This document shows positions 20,102 through 25,381 of a stretch of 64,000 bases of DNA, piece by piece. The stretch covers positions 1 through 64,000 of the forward strand of contig JAFGAR010000146.1 of the NCBI GenBank assembly GCA_016933575.1, in the 5' to 3' direction. The translations under genes were made by a program, and so were the position numbers. Positions within the stretch are counted from its first letter, which is position 1; each line of letters begins with the position of its first letter. This DNA is from Candidatus Thorarchaeota archaeon. GTDB taxonomy: Archaea > Asgardarchaeota > Thorarchaeia > Thorarchaeales > Thorarchaeaceae. The notes below the pieces were generated by a model, which worked only from the letters and a program-made list of their open reading frames with translations, was not told the DNA's origin and did no database searches.

Positions 20102-20491
20102 TTGCTAATCATGAATGTAAGTAAAGCAACAGATTCAAACACAAATTCCCCAATGACTGAGATGTTCTCTCATCTGGGGCGTCCCTGTACAGTTCCTCTC
20201 ATTTTTGCGCTCGGTGAGCGTTCGTACAATGCCAACATTCGCGAGTTGCGAAACAGTATTGATATGAGTGACGGTAAGAGACTAAGCGAGTCTACAATCT
20301 CGAAATGTCTAACTGACCTTACTCAGATCGGTATTGTTGAAGGAACTGAACATGCACACTCTCCCCCGAAGGCAGAATACTGTCTGACCTCAACAGGTCA
20401 ACAGCTCTATAGACACCTTCTCCAGATACGACATCTGGCTGAAAGAGCCTCTTCGGAACCAAATTTCCTTGATAGCATGTCTGCCTGCTAA
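20102..20491 (+). CDS. HxlR-like winged-helix regulator
   Basis: LSESTISKCLTDL...PPKAEYCLTSTG. Confidence 0.75.
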   Translation: MLIMNVSKATDSNTNSPMTEMFSHLGRPCTVPLIFALGERSYNANIRELRNSIDMSDGKRLSESTISKCLTDLTQIGIVEGTEHAHSPPKAEYCLTSTGQQLYRHLLQIRHLAERASSEPNFLDSMSAC

Positions 20492-20507
20492 GGATTTTTT
20501 GGGGGTC

Positions 20508-20548
20508 GGCTAGAGCCCCTCAGGGCTCTGCCACCATCATTTCTTTTT
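20508..20548 (+). terminator. GC hairpin plus T-rich tract after HxlR gene
   Basis: GGCTAGAGCCC-CTCA-GGGCTCTGCC followed by TTTCTTTTT. Confidence 0.55.
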
Positions 20549-20645
20549 CAAATACATGGAAACCTTCAGCTCTGATGGGTTTCATCATTTTCATACTCTG
20601 AAACTTCTGGAAATCCCTATATACTAACTTCAAGGGAAAACGCCT

Positions 20646-20848
20646 GCCAATGAATAGGATGTGTATTCGACTACAAGGGAGTTTTCACTACTGACAGTGC
20701 TTGCTGACATCGCACTGCCAATGGTCTAGGTCGTACACTCATTGGTGATCTTTTCTAACAGACTGAACAATGAGTTCTAGCTCATTCTCTATGTGACAAC
20801 TTCTCTGAGTTCTGTCTGCACATCTCATTCGTATTAGGAGGTAAGAAA
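20646..20848 (+). promoter_or_regulatory. Structured 5' leader, candidate riboswitch/attenuator of the homocysteine-asd-aspartokinase operon
   Basis: TATATA at ~20618; nested helices 20646-20746; alternative pairings; SD GGAGGT 20837-20842. Confidence 0.5.
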
Positions 20849-22207
20849 ATGAAAGAGAACGAGAAATCTATTGAAGAGATCAACATCAGAATTGCTGATG
20901 GAAATGCACGTGTCGTCACTGCGGATGAGATGGTCAAGATCGTCGCAGAGATGAGTGTTGATGAAGTAGTACATGAAGTCGATGTTGTCACAACGGGTAC
21001 GTTTGGTGCGATGTGCTCTTCCGGAGTCTGGATGAACTTCGGACATTCTGAACCTCCTATGAAAATGTCCAGGGTCTGGCTGAATGATGTAGAGGCCTAC
21101 TCGTCCGTGGCTGCTGTTGACGCCTATCTTGGAGCAACACAACCTTCACGGAGCCTAGGAATTGAATATGGCGGAGGTCATGTCATTGAAGACCTTGTTC
21201 GAGGAAGATCTGTCCGTCTTGAGGCAGAAGGTACATCCTCTGATTGCTACCCACTAAAGAGTCTCTCAGCTGATATCAAACTTGAAGACATGAATCAGGC
21301 TATCATGTCGAACCCTCGCAATTGCTATGAGCGATATGGAGCAGCAACAAACACATCTGATCGCGCCATCAATACATACATGGGGCGACTGCTGCCTTCC
21401 ATGGGGAACGCTACCTATTCTGGAGCGGGAGAACTCTCCCCAATAATCAATGATCCCACTTTTCAGACCGTTGGAATTGGTACTCGAATTCTTCTTGGAG
21501 GTACTGAAGGTTATGTCATCGGCAGTGGTACTCAGCACAATCCTAGTGATGGATTTGGAATCCTTATGGTCCAGGGCAATCTCAAGCAGATGAGTCCTGA
21601 GTTTCTCCGAGGCGCTACTCTGACTGGGTATGGTCCAACACTCTATGTGGGCGTTGGAGTACCGATACCCGTCATCAATGCAGAAGTTGTCAGGAGTACA
21701 GCAGTAGCGGATGGCGATATTGTCACAGATGTCTATGATTACGGTATTCAATCCCGGGATAGACCGACTCTAGCCAAGGTCACTTATGAAGAACTGAAGT
21801 CCGGAATGATTGAGATCAATGGAACAATGGTTCAGACATCAGCACTCTCGAGCTTCAGGAATGCCTTAATGATTGCCAGAAGATTGAGAGACCTGATTCT
21901 GCAAAAGAAATTCTTCCTGACTGAACCTGTTGAGCTACTGAAATCCGAAGGTACTGCATATCCAATGCGCCAGCGAGTCAGGAATGACGCACGAGACCCG
22001 CAGATTGCAGTGAATCACTATTCGGAGTACTATGTTCAACGTGATGAAACAAATTGTGTTCACTGTGGATTATGTGTTCCATACTGCTCAGCTGGAGTGT
22101 TTCAGCAGAATGTTGACTGGACAGTGTCCTATGAACCAAGTCGATGTGTAGAGTGCGGCGAGTGTCGAGATGTCTGTCCTCAACGTGCTATTCATCTTCG
22201 AGGGTGA
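20849..22207 (+). CDS. Homocysteine biosynthesis protein (DUF39, aspartate-semialdehyde sulfurtransferase) fused to 2[4Fe-4S] ferredoxin
   Basis: VDVVTTGTFGAMCSSG, YGGGHVIEDL, TYMG; C-terminal CVHCGLCVPYC and CVECGECRDVCP. Confidence 0.9.
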   Translation: MKENEKSIEEINIRIADGNARVVTADEMVKIVAEMSVDEVVHEVDVVTTGTFGAMCSSGVWMNFGHSEPPMKMSRVWLNDVEAYSSVAAVDAYLGATQPSRSLGIEYGGGHVIEDLVRGRSVRLEAEGTSSDCYPLKSLSADIKLEDMNQAIMSNPRNCYERYGAATNTSDRAINTYMGRLLPSMGNATYSGAGELSPIINDPTFQTVGIGTRILLGGTEGYVIGSGTQHNPSDGFGILMVQGNLKQMSPEFLRGATLTGYGPTLYVGVGVPIPVINAEVVRSTAVADGDIVTDVYDYGIQSRDRPTLAKVTYEELKSGMIEINGTMVQTSALSSFRNALMIARRLRDLILQKKFFLTEPVELLKSEGTAYPMRQRVRNDARDPQIAVNHYSEYYVQRDETNCVHCGLCVPYCSAGVFQQNVDWTVSYEPSRCVECGECRDVCPQRAIHLRG

Positions 22208-22218
22208 GGTGATGCAAA

Positions 22219-22947
22219 ATGGAACGATATTATCTCAGAATTGGAGAGACTATAGCTACGCTCATCTCCGAACCAGAATACCACTCGATAGCAGAGCATG
22301 CCGTACGATTCGCGCGACGACAGGTTATTGACTACATAGAAAAAGTGCCAGAATTCAAGACAAGCTATGCACCTCTGGAGATTAAAGACAATGCTCCTGA
22401 TATTGTGCAGTCCATGGGCCGAGCAGCTTTCAAGACAAACGTAGGTCCAATGGCTGCAGTCGCTGGTGCTATCGCTCAATTTGCTATAGAAAGTATGATG
22501 GATGCAGGTGCCAGCCATGTAGTCTTTGACAATGGAGGGGACATAGCAATGTATCTCGACCATCCCATCATTGTCGGACTCTATACTGGTACGAAAGGTC
22601 CACAGGGGCTTGGTTTCAAAGTGACTAGGACTGGAACACTCCTTGGTCTCTGTACCTCATCCGCAACAATTGGACACTCGTTCAGTTTTGGGAACACCGA
22701 TTCTTCAACTGTCTATGCTACTGATGTGGCTCTTGCCGATGCATACGCAACTGCTCTAGGAAACGCAGTCACAATCCCTGACTATACTCTCATTGAATCT
22801 TCGCTTCGGGGTGTGATGATTCCGGGTATTCTTGGAGCAATGGTGACAATCGATGATGCTGTTGGCACCTGTGGCATGCTACCTGAGTTGGTCCAGGCTC
22901 GGGTCGACTATGATTTAATCTCAAAGGGTCTGGGGGGATATGAGTGA
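22219..22947 (+). CDS. UPF0280/COG2122 ApbE-like sulfide-assimilation protein
   Basis: VGPMAAVAGAIA, DNGGDIA, CTSSATIGHSFSFG, ADAYATALGN. Confidence 0.9.
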   Translation: MERYYLRIGETIATLISEPEYHSIAEHAVRFARRQVIDYIEKVPEFKTSYAPLEIKDNAPDIVQSMGRAAFKTNVGPMAAVAGAIAQFAIESMMDAGASHVVFDNGGDIAMYLDHPIIVGLYTGTKGPQGLGFKVTRTGTLLGLCTSSATIGHSFSFGNTDSSTVYATDVALADAYATALGNAVTIPDYTLIESSLRGVMIPGILGAMVTIDDAVGTCGMLPELVQARVDYDLISKGLGGYE

Positions 22948-23999
22948 AGAAACTAAGAGCGTGTATCCTTGGTGCTACAGGGATTGTTGGGCAGCACTTC
23001 ATTCGAATCTTGGCTGACCATCCATTCTTTGAGATAGAAGCATTGACTGCATCGCCTCGTTCTCAGGGTCATGAGTATGGCAGACAAGTAGACTGGCTTG
23101 TATCTGAGAGAGTCCCTGAGATTGTGCAGGAGATGGTCATTCAGGACACATGTGCGGATACTGTGTTGAGACTTGACCCGGACATAGTCTTCAGTGCACT
23201 ACCAAGTGGAATCGCCTCAGATATTGAAGCTCAATTGGCCACTGCTGGCCTACCAGTCTTCTCCAATACTGGTGCTCACCGGATGGACTCCTCAGTTCCC
23301 ATATTGATACCTGAGGTCAATCCGGACCATCTGGAATTGATCAAATATCAGGACCTAGGTGATGGTTACATTGTCACAAACTCAAACTGCTCTACTTCAG
23401 GCTTGGTTCTGGCTCTCAGACCCCTGATGGAATTAGGCGTGCGTAAGCTCACTGTGACTACGTTTCAAGCAGTCTCAGGAGCGGGAAGACGGGGTGTGTC
23501 ATCTCTGGACATCCTAGGAAATGTCATCCCCTTCATCACAAACGAGGAAGCGAAGATTGTGGGAGAGACCAAGAAGATACTAGGCACCAGGTCTACAGGT
23601 GAGGTCATTCCAGCTCCTATCGATGTGAATGCAAGTTGTGCAAGAGTGCCCGTCTTAGATGGACACCTTGAGAGTGTCGTTATAGATATGGATGAACCTG
23701 TTTCAATTGACAGAGTGGTCGAGTTACTGGAGAACTTTACCGGCGAACCACAGGCTCTTACTCTTCCAATGGCTCCCAGTAGACCCCTTGTGGTCCTTCA
23801 TGAGAATGACCGGCCGCAACCCAAGAGAGACCTCTCCTTAGGGTCTGGCGATCTGGGGATGACCGTAAAGCTGGGTCGCCTCCGCTGTCAGGGCAACCAG
23901 CTCAACATGTTTCTCTTGGTCCATAATACCATACGTGGCGCAGCAGGTGCCTCTGTGCTTAATGCTGAGTTTGCACGAGCAAAGGGGGTGTTGGCGTGA
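22944..23999 (+). CDS. asd: Aspartate-semialdehyde dehydrogenase
   Basis: LGATGIVGQ, PEVN, NSNCST, QAVSGAG, HNTIRGAAG. Confidence 0.95.
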   Translation: MKKLRACILGATGIVGQHFIRILADHPFFEIEALTASPRSQGHEYGRQVDWLVSERVPEIVQEMVIQDTCADTVLRLDPDIVFSALPSGIASDIEAQLATAGLPVFSNTGAHRMDSSVPILIPEVNPDHLELIKYQDLGDGYIVTNSNCSTSGLVLALRPLMELGVRKLTVTTFQAVSGAGRRGVSSLDILGNVIPFITNEEAKIVGETKKILGTRSTGEVIPAPIDVNASCARVPVLDGHLESVVIDMDEPVSIDRVVELLENFTGEPQALTLPMAPSRPLVVLHENDRPQPKRDLSLGSGDLGMTVKLGRLRCQGNQLNMFLLVHNTIRGAAGASVLNAEFARAKGVLA

Positions 24000-25381
24000 G
24001 AGTGGCTAAATTCGGTGGTGGCTGTCTCAGAGATGCCTCCGATTTCTTACGTGTGGCTGAAATCATCAAGCAGGACCAAGCTGAAGGTGTTGTCGTTGTT
24101 GTGTCTGCAGTCTTCGGAGTCACTGATATGCTTTACAATGGTGCCAGATATGCTCTCAATTCCGAGGCAAGCATTCCTCAGACAATGAGAAATATTCGGA
24201 CAAGACATCTCGATATCATCGAAGCTGGAGTGCACAACCCTGTGATCATGGTTCAGGTCAAGAGACTCATCGAGGAACGGCTTCAGAAGCTCGAACGTCT
24301 TCTCTATGGGGTTGCCTATATCGGAGAACTAACAGAGTCGGTCAGAGTGCTCGTCCTTAGTCAAGGGGAACGTCTAGCTGCAGTAATTCTCGCTCATGTT
24401 CTGCAGGCTTCTGGCATTGATTCTGAGGTCTTGGAGACTGATTGCATTGGATTACTCACCGACAATGTGTTTGATGGTGCGAGTGCAAATCTATCAAGGG
24501 CTCGTTATAATATTCAACGCCAAGTCACTCCACTGATTACAAGTAATGCGACTCCAGTCATCACTGGCTTCTTTGGATGCAACGAGGCTGGTCAGACAAC
24601 GACCTTTGGAAGGAATGGCTCTGACTATAGCGCAGCAGTGATTGCCTGTGCTTTAGATGCCAGAGTCTTGGATATCTGGAAAGATGTCAATGGATTCATG
24701 ACAGCAGATCCCAAGATAATTGAACATGCAATACCAATCGAACTACTCTCCTACAGTGAGGCTGCTGAGCTGTCCTATTTTGGGGCTAAGATCTTGCATC
24801 CACGAACAGTGGAACCACTTCGTGATTCTAACATCGAGATCAATATCCGAAATATCCGCTCTCCCGACGGTCCACGAACTGTGATTTGGCCCAGAGGGCA
24901 AGCTGAGAGGGATGTGATAAAGAGCATTGCCTGCAATAGCGGAATCTCAGTCTTGAAGATTCATGGTGCTGGAGTTGGCTTTAAACCCGGAATAATAGGT
25001 GAGATTGGAAAGACTCTCTCACTTGTCAATATCAACATCTTCTCAGTGATCACCTCTCAGACCTGTATCAATCTATTACTCGATTCTCGTGACTCATTAA
25101 TGAGCCGGGATGCCCTTTTACCACTTGTCGGAGGTGTCATTGGTGAGATTGATGTCCGAGACGATCTAGCATTGATAGCAGTAGTTGGTGAAGGTCTCTT
25201 GACAACCCGGGGTCTTGCAGCTCGAGTGTTCTCTGCAGTGGCTGAGAGTGGGGTCAATGTAGAGATGTTCTCAGCTGGAGCCTCTGATGTAGCATATTAT
25301 TTCATTGTCAAACGAGAGGATATGGAGCCTGCAATACAGGCTGTGCACAGGAGCTTCTTCGAGTCTAAAGCAACAACATAG
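23996..25381 (+). CDS. lysC: Aspartate kinase with two ACT domains
   Basis: KFGG, GRNGSDYSA, DVNGFMTADP, YFGAKILHP. Confidence 0.92.
   Translation: MRVAKFGGGCLRDASDFLRVAEIIKQDQAEGVVVVVSAVFGVTDMLYNGARYALNSEASIPQTMRNIRTRHLDIIEAGVHNPVIMVQVKRLIEERLQKLERLLYGVAYIGELTESVRVLVLSQGERLAAVILAHVLQASGIDSEVLETDCIGLLTDNVFDGASANLSRARYNIQRQVTPLITSNATPVITGFFGCNEAGQTTTFGRNGSDYSAAVIACALDARVLDIWKDVNGFMTADPKIIEHAIPIELLSYSEAAELSYFGAKILHPRTVEPLRDSNIEINIRNIRSPDGPRTVIWPRGQAERDVIKSIACNSGISVLKIHGAGVGFKPGIIGEIGKTLSLVNINIFSVITSQTCINLLLDSRDSLMSRDALLPLVGGVIGEIDVRDDLALIAVVGEGLLTTRGLAARVFSAVAESGVNVEMFSAGASDVAYYFIVKREDMEPAIQAVHRSFFESKATT

Follow-up and report, generated by a model that had tools for sequence, protein, structure and literature searches.

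What kind of element occupies the long intergenic region upstream of a predicted homocysteine operon of a Thorarchaeota archaeon is the question raised by the window (i.e., the whole 64-kb stretch of DNA analyzed), which belongs to an incomplete Thorarchaeota MAG (G000). In this window, the region is flanked on its 5′ side by an HxlR/PadR-like winged-helix gene (20102-20491) and on its 3′ side by a gene for a 452-aa protein (20849-22207). Asgard archaea are the closest prokaryotic relatives of eukaryotes, and few cis-regulatory RNAs are known in archaea. A literature search found no cis-regulatory RNA described for Asgard archaea. The original prediction placed a translational switch that senses a metabolite upstream of the operon. 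We consider it probable that positions 20646-20848 form the 5′ leader of the mRNA of an aspartate-to-homocysteine operon and act in cis as a three-strand, two-state switch of translation initiation. This switch is probably lineage-specific and new to description.

The operon, its promoter and the predicted leader

Relatives of the product encoded at 20849-22207 are named homocysteine biosynthesis protein in the source records, and the product encoded at 22219-22947 itself matched only unnamed NCBIfam models of the PRK04334 type, below cut-off (Table 1). Given that homocysteine is made from aspartate semialdehyde by DUF39, ferredoxin and COG2122 proteins (PMC5764234), the operon is predicted to span the route from aspartate to homocysteine. 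The G000 genome encodes TBP and lacks sigma-70. When the entire window was compared with Rfam, no family, tRNA included, reached its gathering score.

Fused HcyBio orthologues were found in 14 of the 81 sampled family genomes, and an additional one, in G011, came from a genus search. At all 15 orthologous family loci in the 14 genomes, the upstream intergenic regions were 240-450 nt long, and nearly all orthologous loci had a Shine-Dalgarno (SD) sequence of the GGAGG type (AGGAGA at one locus) at a constant distance from the start codon. Two variant arrangements were observed. In the genome G086, the operon was present twice (L020 and L021), and both copies are preceded by a leader of the same subtype. 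At locus L031 (G046:C16, 1501-2100), the HcyBio gene has been lost, and the promoter and a 212-nt leader are retained before asd and a 79-codon ORF that is possibly a remnant of HcyBio. In the close subclade described below, synteny is kept between the HxlR/PadR-like gene and the leader. The gene and a hairpin that comes after it lie within 20102-20535. The hairpin, AGAGCCC/GGGCUCU in the window, has a stem that is altered on both sides between species (CAGGGUCC/GGACCCUG in G006 and CAGGAUCC/GGAUCCUG in G023) and is probably the terminator of this gene or an RNA-stability element.

A 21-nt motif with the consensus CATAYTCKGAARYNTCKGRAA ends 5 nt 5′ of TATATA in most HcyBio loci. In the 86 family genomes, this motif had approximately 65 matches, compared to 2 for a reversed control. 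Among 185,579 species genomes, its exact matches were found solely in records named Thorarchaeota or just "uncultured archaeon," and a pattern scan of metagenomes recovered only loci of the Tes class and no new leaders. The TATA box, from which the original prediction placed the start near 20646, is conserved in orthologous loci, and an invariant GCCA ((T)GCCA) follows its first T at 26-28 nt; in the window this GCCA is at 20646. Thus, the spacing behind the proposed start near 20646 is fixed. From this promoter geometry and the pairing analysis described below, we infer that the mRNA starts at the G of GCCA. TATA-like motifs inside the leaders were absent from G000 and limited to a single weak match in each of 4 of the 25 leaders.

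The consensus motif and a TATA box are also found 5′ of the gene for the tetraether lipid synthase Tes (radical SAM, NF045702) across Thorarchaeota (loci L024-L052 and L057-L075), where the leaders are short and contain a conserved hairpin, UACCACYC-N4-YAGUGGUGGU. The motif may be the site of a shared factor that links the supply of homocysteine/SAM with a SAM-dependent lipid enzyme.

In addition, the gap 5′ of the leader promoter contains a candidate box C/D sRNA on the minus strand (20518-20596). Its matches in Rfam were all sub-threshold (sR3, 16 bits, E = 0.1), and it is absent at that position in relatives. No rRNA target of its guides was found in the incomplete G000 MAG; a perfect 12-nt guide match on contig C7 was rejected as an rRNA target, as no Rfam family was found there. 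Given that TATATA is palindromic and lies approximately 25 nt from the 5′ end of this candidate sRNA, it could fire both ways.

Table 1. Positions in the window of the promoter elements, leader segments and genes discussed in the text, together with helices and repeats of the original prediction
Feature	Position	Strand	Remarks
Candidate C/D sRNA boxes	C AUGAUGA 20587-81; D′ CUGA 20568-65; C′ AUGAUGG 20540-34; D CUGA 20523-20	-	
Upstream promoter motif CATACTCTGAAACTTCTGGAA	20592..20612	+	Family consensus CATAYTCKGAARYNTCKGRAA, direct repeat of TCKGRAA; conserved upstream of HcyBio loci
TATA box, TATATA	20618..20623	+	Kept in orthologous loci
S1, GCCAAUGAAUAGGAUGUGUAUU	20646..20667	+	Predicted mRNA 5′ end; shared strand of the proposed switch
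P1 of the original prediction, GCCAATGA with TCATTGGT	20646-53 with 20739-46		
P2, GTGTA/TACAC, extended by CGAC/GTCG	20661-65/20734-38; 20668-71/20730-33	+	5′ strand 20661..20671 (GUGUA..CGAC), 3′ strand 20730-20738
Pseudo-SD, CAAGGGAGUU	20674..20683	+	Near-invariant purine block in the large 5′-side loop of domain 1
AGT-TTTC-ACT and CAGTGC/GCACTG hairpins	within 20680-20718		
Apical hairpin of domain 1, UGACAGUGC...GCACUGCCA	20692..20720	+	
S2	20726..20747	+	First partner of S1, closes domain 1; duplex -15.3 kcal/mol
Second-domain helix of the original prediction, CAGACTGAAC with GTTCTGTCTG	20759-68 with 20809-18		9 of 10 pairs
AATGAG; CTCATT copies	20769-74; 20738, 20781, 20824		
Anti-SD candidate, AACUUCUCUG	20798..20807	+	TTCTCTG recurrence; ACUUCU:GGAGGU in RNAalifold consensus; alternative partner pseudo-SD
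S3	20816..20833	+	Second partner of S1, adjoins SD, 16-33 nt before ATG; duplex -17.5 kcal/mol
Shine-Dalgarno, GGAGGU	20837..20842	+	ATG at 20849
HcyBio (DUF39) fused to 2x[4Fe-4S] ferredoxin, aspartate-semialdehyde sulfurtransferase type	20849..22207	+	PF01837, E = 3e-137; Fer4 domains
COG2122/AbpE-like protein, 242 aa, DUF39 homocysteine pathway	22219..22947	+	PF27030 AbpE_bact in orthologues of related loci
asd, aspartate-semialdehyde dehydrogenase	22944..23999	+	PF01118, PF02774
Aspartokinase with ACT domains	23996..25381	+	PF00696, PF22468

Competing partners of the leader 5′ end

The leaders compared numbered 25 and came from approximately 10 lineages; 17 were from species genomes and 8 further distinct ones were from metagenome or NCBI contigs. 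Their distance from GCCA to ATG is 181-248 nt (approximately 200 nt in the window), and a long leader, predicted to be transcribed as RNA, is conserved at all orthologous Thorarchaeota loci. Between subclades the leaders are not alignable; the architecture is common to the approximately 10 lineages and the sequence is not. The motifs found family-wide are all short (i.e., GCCA, GAA, UGGC and UUCUCUG), and in a k-mer survey no 7-mer except the SD was present in all lineages, the sole non-SD 7-mer in 7 of the 10 lineages being TTCTCTG.

Nearly every leader has two strong complementary partners for its first ~22 nt (S1). The first, S2, is found at roughly -45 to -125 relative to ATG (-157 to -176 in L014) and the second, S3, at -6 to -40, adjoining the SD. 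In G048 (L011), GCCAAUUAAGUCAA lies within 17- and 19-bp duplexes with CUCUUCUGACUUGAUUGGUG (S2) and CUGUAUUUCUUGACUUGAGAGGUG (S3), respectively; in G047 (L014) the S1:S3 helix is 19 bp; and in G046 (L031) GCCA...GAAUCG pairs with both CGAUUC...UGGC and CGAUUUGUUUG.

Because the best partners were chosen, the absolute duplex energies are biased and the controlled part of the following comparison is solely the contrast between cognate and non-cognate pairs: in 17 leaders, the mean energy of S1:S3 was -15.4 kcal/mol for cognate and -9.6 kcal/mol for non-cognate pairs (sd 3.0), and that of S1:S2 was -15.3 and -11.7 kcal/mol, respectively. The matrix of cognate and non-cognate energies was block-diagonal by subclade. 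When S1 was permuted among 10 lineage representatives, an equally good result was obtained in 0 of 100000 permutations for S1:S3 and in 57 of 100000 for S1:S2. Thus, S1 co-varies by lineage with both partners, and the co-variation of S1:S2 points to selection on the alternative pairing. When windows along the leader were compared, the cognate excess of complementarity to the pre-SD region was -7.6 kcal/mol if they began at nt 1 and approximately 0 beyond nt 19. Only windows that begin at leader nt 1-13 show this lineage-specific complementarity, in further support of the 5′ end predicted for the mRNA. In 9 of the 10 lineages, the sense strand had a lower MFE than the antisense strand (mean difference, 8.6 kcal/mol), and the leader helices are rich in G-U pairs. 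The sense-strand bias and the G-U pairs argue for RNA helices rather than inverted repeats of DNA. As judged from these comparisons, two mutually exclusive helices couple the 5′ end of the leader to the SD region.

Taken alone, the G000 leader does not fold more stably than chance: the MFE of 20640-20860 was -60.2 kcal/mol, compared to -53.4 +/- 4.1 kcal/mol for shuffled sequences (z = -1.66), and 12 of 200 shuffles were as good. It is solely the comparison with orthologous leaders that points to structure beyond chance. For G000, the two states were modeled. When S1:S3 was enforced, the ensemble energy (-60.1 kcal/mol) equaled that of the free ensemble (-60.3 kcal/mol). The modeled S1:S3 state is a composite rod, in which 20650-65 pairs with 20817-32 and 20669-88 pairs with 20793-20811. 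The second of these helices joins the purine block CAAGGGAGUU with AACUUCUCUG, so that the pseudo-SD is paired with 20798-20807 in the predicted ground state, and the unpaired probabilities are 0.75 for the SD and 0.94 for AUG. When S1:S2 was enforced, the energy was -53.8 kcal/mol (i.e., a modeled gap of 6.3 kcal/mol between states) and P1 and P2 of the original prediction formed. In this state, S3 (UCUCAUUCGU) alternatively pairs over 9 bp with the start-codon region AUGAAAGAGA (20849-58), and the unpaired probability of AUG falls to 0.16. Pairing of S3 with the start-codon region showed no lineage-specific signal (z = -0.37).

In the model that we propose, the transcript begins at the G of GCCA, 26-28 nt past the TATA box, and its S1 strand (~22 nt) would pair either with S2, closing the rod-like domain 1, or with S3, whose 3′ end is only a few nt from the SD. 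The S1:S3 state is the in silico ground state of G000; in it, the leader would form one long composite rod, its purine block CAAGGGAGUU would capture the pyrimidine-rich anti-SD AACUUCUCUG, and the SD and AUG would be left free (translation ON). Pairing of S1 with S2 would instead release S3 and the anti-SD, which would mask AUG and/or the SD (translation OFF). The choice between states may be biased by a metabolite, a protein or folding kinetics. Access to the ribosome site, measured as the product of the mean unpaired probabilities of SD and AUG (multiplied by hand from the table of values), was greater for the S1:S3 ensemble than for the S1:S2 ensemble in 8 of the 10 lineages (p ~0.055, sign test by hand), and the ON/OFF assignment fails in the other 2; higher access in the S1:S3 state is thus suggested, not decisively, by the modeled ensembles.

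The sign of the predicted energy gap between the states differs among lineages: the S1:S3-constrained ensemble had approximately the energy of the free ensemble in 15 of the 25 leaders, and S1:S2 was the predicted ground state in 8 of the 25. The former count would suit a leader that does not switch, in which a long helix constitutively seals the 5′ end against 5′-end-dependent decay and keeps the SD clear of the pyrimidine-rich leader, S2 being a co-transcriptional folding intermediate. Such a leader is also suggested by the position of S1:S3, the better supported helix, which begins on the predicted 5′ nucleotide or no more than a few nt away, and by the lack of an identifiable effector. However, a purely protective role accounts neither for the co-variation of S1:S2 by lineage (57/100000) nor for the leaders in which S1:S2 is the ground state, and a conserved anti-SD with two alternative partners exceeds what protection needs. 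We therefore regard a constitutive structural leader as doubtful.

Several elements of the original prediction were revised by these comparisons. All of its motifs are present in the window (Table 1), and its translational switch is retained as to architecture, with mutually exclusive pairings between the 5′ end and the SD region; the strands involved needed correction. The competition conserved among leaders is not that of AATGAG for three CTCATT copies but that of S1 for S2 (which includes the copy at 20738) and S3 (which includes that at 20824). No consistent S1-like direct repeats were found elsewhere in the leaders, and the AATGAG/CTCATT competition is therefore specific to G000. The conserved anti-SD candidate is ACUUCU(CU) at 20799-20806 rather than ATCTC, and the second-domain helix is not conserved.

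The leader itself was found once per genome. Searches with nhmmer and motifs detected no paralogous copies in the G000 genome. In other Asgard families, short AT-rich regions precede HcyBio, without this leader and without Rfam matches. Partly palindromic, repeated elements that contain ATGCAT (e.g., GATGCATATTATATGCATT) precede HcyBio in L096 and L101 of other Asgard archaea, with less clear instances in L098 and L099; their sequences suggest operator-based control of these genes instead of a long leader.

Close relatives, known RNA families and the proposed trigger

In an alignment of 12 leaders from close relatives (A2), hardly any variation is seen in S1 and in the 5′ half of domain 1, and P1 (20646-53:20739-46) and P2 are retained. 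P2 has 8-9 bp in all 12 sequences, with 97% of the cells paired. In G000, both strands of P2 have changed and the helix is kept, by eye, in a shifted register, which a fixed-register count scores as unpaired: GUGUAUAC/GUAUACAC is replaced by GUGUA..CGAC/GUCG.UACAC. A similar shift, also by eye, changes GCCA-AUGA/UCAUUGG of P1 to GCCAGAUG/CAUGCUGGC. In the apex of domain 1, GACAG:CUGUC is 90% paired, with one compensatory change of A-U to G-C. The RNAalifold consensus of the 12 leaders includes P2, small inner helices (columns 36-39:59-62, 43-46:53-56 and 63-66:73-76) and ACUUCU:GGAGGU. A helix scan identified the alternative pairing of ACUUCU (columns 156-161) with GGGAGU (columns 33-38) in 93% of the cells, with 5 extra pair types, including, by eye, a double change of G-C to A-U in one sequence.

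At fixed register, P1, P2 and P4 are 94% paired, compared to 20-54% with the partner slid, and show one compensatory pair; the shuffle control was weak, as 19 of 500 shuffles reached the percentage paired and 78 of 500 the covariation score. As the fixed-register helices barely vary, covariation inside the subclade is weak. Covariation across orthologous leaders thus holds by lineage, for S1:S3 and S1:S2, and is weak within the 12 relatives. The mean column identity in the subclade is 84% for domain 1 and 79% for the whole leader, and within domain 1 the block AUCAAGGGAGUUUU is unpaired and near-invariant. R1, a covariance model built on domain 1, detected exactly one locus, always the HcyBio leader, in only 4 of the 86 family genomes, and its scores in other subclades were at noise level (<=13 bits, E>0.3). 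By these alignments and searches, conservation of the inner core does not extend beyond the closest subclade.

No Rfam family matches the leader. In three divergent leaders (G000, L014 and L017), no riboswitch family, SAM families included, was detected in Rfam at E<=10, and Rfam searches of the leaders and 20 loci yielded nothing but noise-level C/D-box matches. SAM-I (RF00162) and the other SAM classes of Rfam 15 had no match at gathering score in the window and 20 related loci, and the lysine riboswitch (RF00168) was likewise absent, both from the window at gathering score and from the leader at E<=10. The T-box model (RF00230) matched neither the window nor the 20 related loci, nor the leader at E<=10, and a conserved specifier codon and a T-box sequence were not found. 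These results agree with the statement in the original prediction that the leader matches no SAM-I, lysine or T-box consensus. The triplet that follows GCCA differs among lineages (AUG, AAG, UAG, ACG and AUU) and therefore is not a methionine specifier. A T-box-like specifier, a K-turn, a bulge-helix-bulge processing stem and an oligo-U attenuator were each considered by eye and rejected, and S3 of G000 contains no U-tract. A conserved upstream ORF rich in a regulatory codon, as expected of a leader-peptide attenuator, was not found: the ATG at 20651 of G000 opens 14 codons, its counterparts encode M-N-stop in G006 and M-K-stop in G023, and other lineages have no ATG at this position.

Bacteria use SAM riboswitches on DUF39 genes. 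The context of the operon matches the sites of these and other leader controls on bacterial DUF39 genes, and the predicted leader, from TATA box to SD, is a 5′ leader of a pathway gene, as riboswitches are. Domain 1 (20646-20747) could accordingly be imagined as an aptamer for SAM, SAH, methionine or homocysteine, whose binding would lock P1 (S1:S2) and leave S3 and the anti-SD to mask the ribosome site. Within the subclade, no other part of the leader is as conserved as domain 1, which includes the unpaired block AUCAAGGGAGUUUU; as translational riboswitches do, it shares a strand (that of P1) with the expression platform, and the gap of 6.3 kcal/mol in G000 seems within the reach of ligand binding. 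However, an aptamer core conserved across distant hosts was not found: R1 finds nothing above noise beyond the subclade, no 7-mer but the SD is universal, the element is single-copy, and no riboswitch family of Rfam appears even at E<=10. The near-invariance in the subclade is also explicable without a ligand, given that the purine block belongs to a chain of SD, anti-SD and pseudo-SD and that S1 has two partners to match. The lack of a conserved core tips the balance against metabolite sensing, and the sensing of SAM, SAH, homocysteine, Met or Lys in the original prediction is unsupported so far. We consider such a riboswitch unlikely. It would be the first metabolite riboswitch class in Asgard archaea, and a fast-evolving rod aptamer (domain 1) would bind a product of the sulfur amino-acid pathway (e.g., SAM or homocysteine) through its architecture and a few nucleotides, not through an extended conserved core, and hold S1:S2 against S1:S3, which appears equally unlikely.

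An architecture that is kept without a core seems closer to protein- or tRNA-dependent leaders than to aptamers. A trans-acting macromolecule might thus set the switch, either an RNA-binding protein on the GCCA/UGGC end, the purine block or UUCUCUG, or an uncharged tRNA in a T-box-like contact, and the shortness of the family-wide motifs fits such a factor. Against this, no T-box model matched, the variable triplet after GCCA provides no methionine specifier, no candidate gene for an RNA-binding protein is linked, and the adjacent HxlR-like gene is of a DNA-binding type and syntenic only in the subclade. A trans-acting setting of the switch is, in our view, quite improbable. Finally, that the complementarities are DNA inverted repeats to which a transcription factor (e.g., the HxlR-like protein encoded upstream) binds as operators is suggested by a palindromic GTATAC in P2, found twice in most subclade members, and by the conserved factor-type motif at the promoter, but is hardly credible, as the palindromes are broken in G000 and the G006 group while the pairing between arms is kept via G-U and both-strand changes, the sense RNA is favored, and the arms co-vary in lineages without an HxlR neighbor.

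The Thorarchaeota leader and known regulatory leaders

The three-strand switch favored here provides a concrete model, testable by mutation, of how long-range competing helices could control translation in Asgard archaea, and the operon that it precedes commits aspartate to homocysteine via the anaerobic DUF39 route. A ligand, if found, would make the leader a new riboswitch class; if there is none, it would be an RNA switch whose architecture is conserved between genera while the sequence changes. Such an architecture-only element escaped the sequence-based search (Rfam) here.

Among the leaders known in bacteria, those of SAM-I (S-box, RF00162) and of the Met-specific T-box (RF00230) control DUF39/COG2122 homocysteine genes and thus the same pathway, from the same position before a DUF39 gene, but the Thorarchaeota leader scores with neither model at E<=10 and has no four-way junction, conserved specifier codon, T-box sequence or terminator. 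With translational OFF platforms such as the E. coli thiM TPP riboswitch and SAM-II/SAM-V, it has in common that it is a cis 5′ leader before a biosynthetic operon, that its closing helix and expression platform share a strand, and that a chain of SD, anti-SD and anti-anti-SD gives two mutually exclusive folds. It differs from them in the absence of an aptamer core across genera and of any Rfam match, in its single copy per genome, and in its shared strand, which is the extreme 5′ end, with the alternative partner approximately 170 nt away beside the SD. Similar to the trp leader attenuator of E. coli (1:2/2:3/3:4), it has at least three competing strands, one of which has two alternative partners; in contrast to the trp leader, it lacks a conserved leader peptide and a conserved oligo-U terminator (G000 has none), and its output is likely translational. 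As in bacterial mRNAs that are stabilized by 5′-terminal stems, such as the ompA 5′ UTR, the first nucleotides of its transcript are predicted to be base-paired, but here the partner is distal and a second partner co-varies with the same strand.
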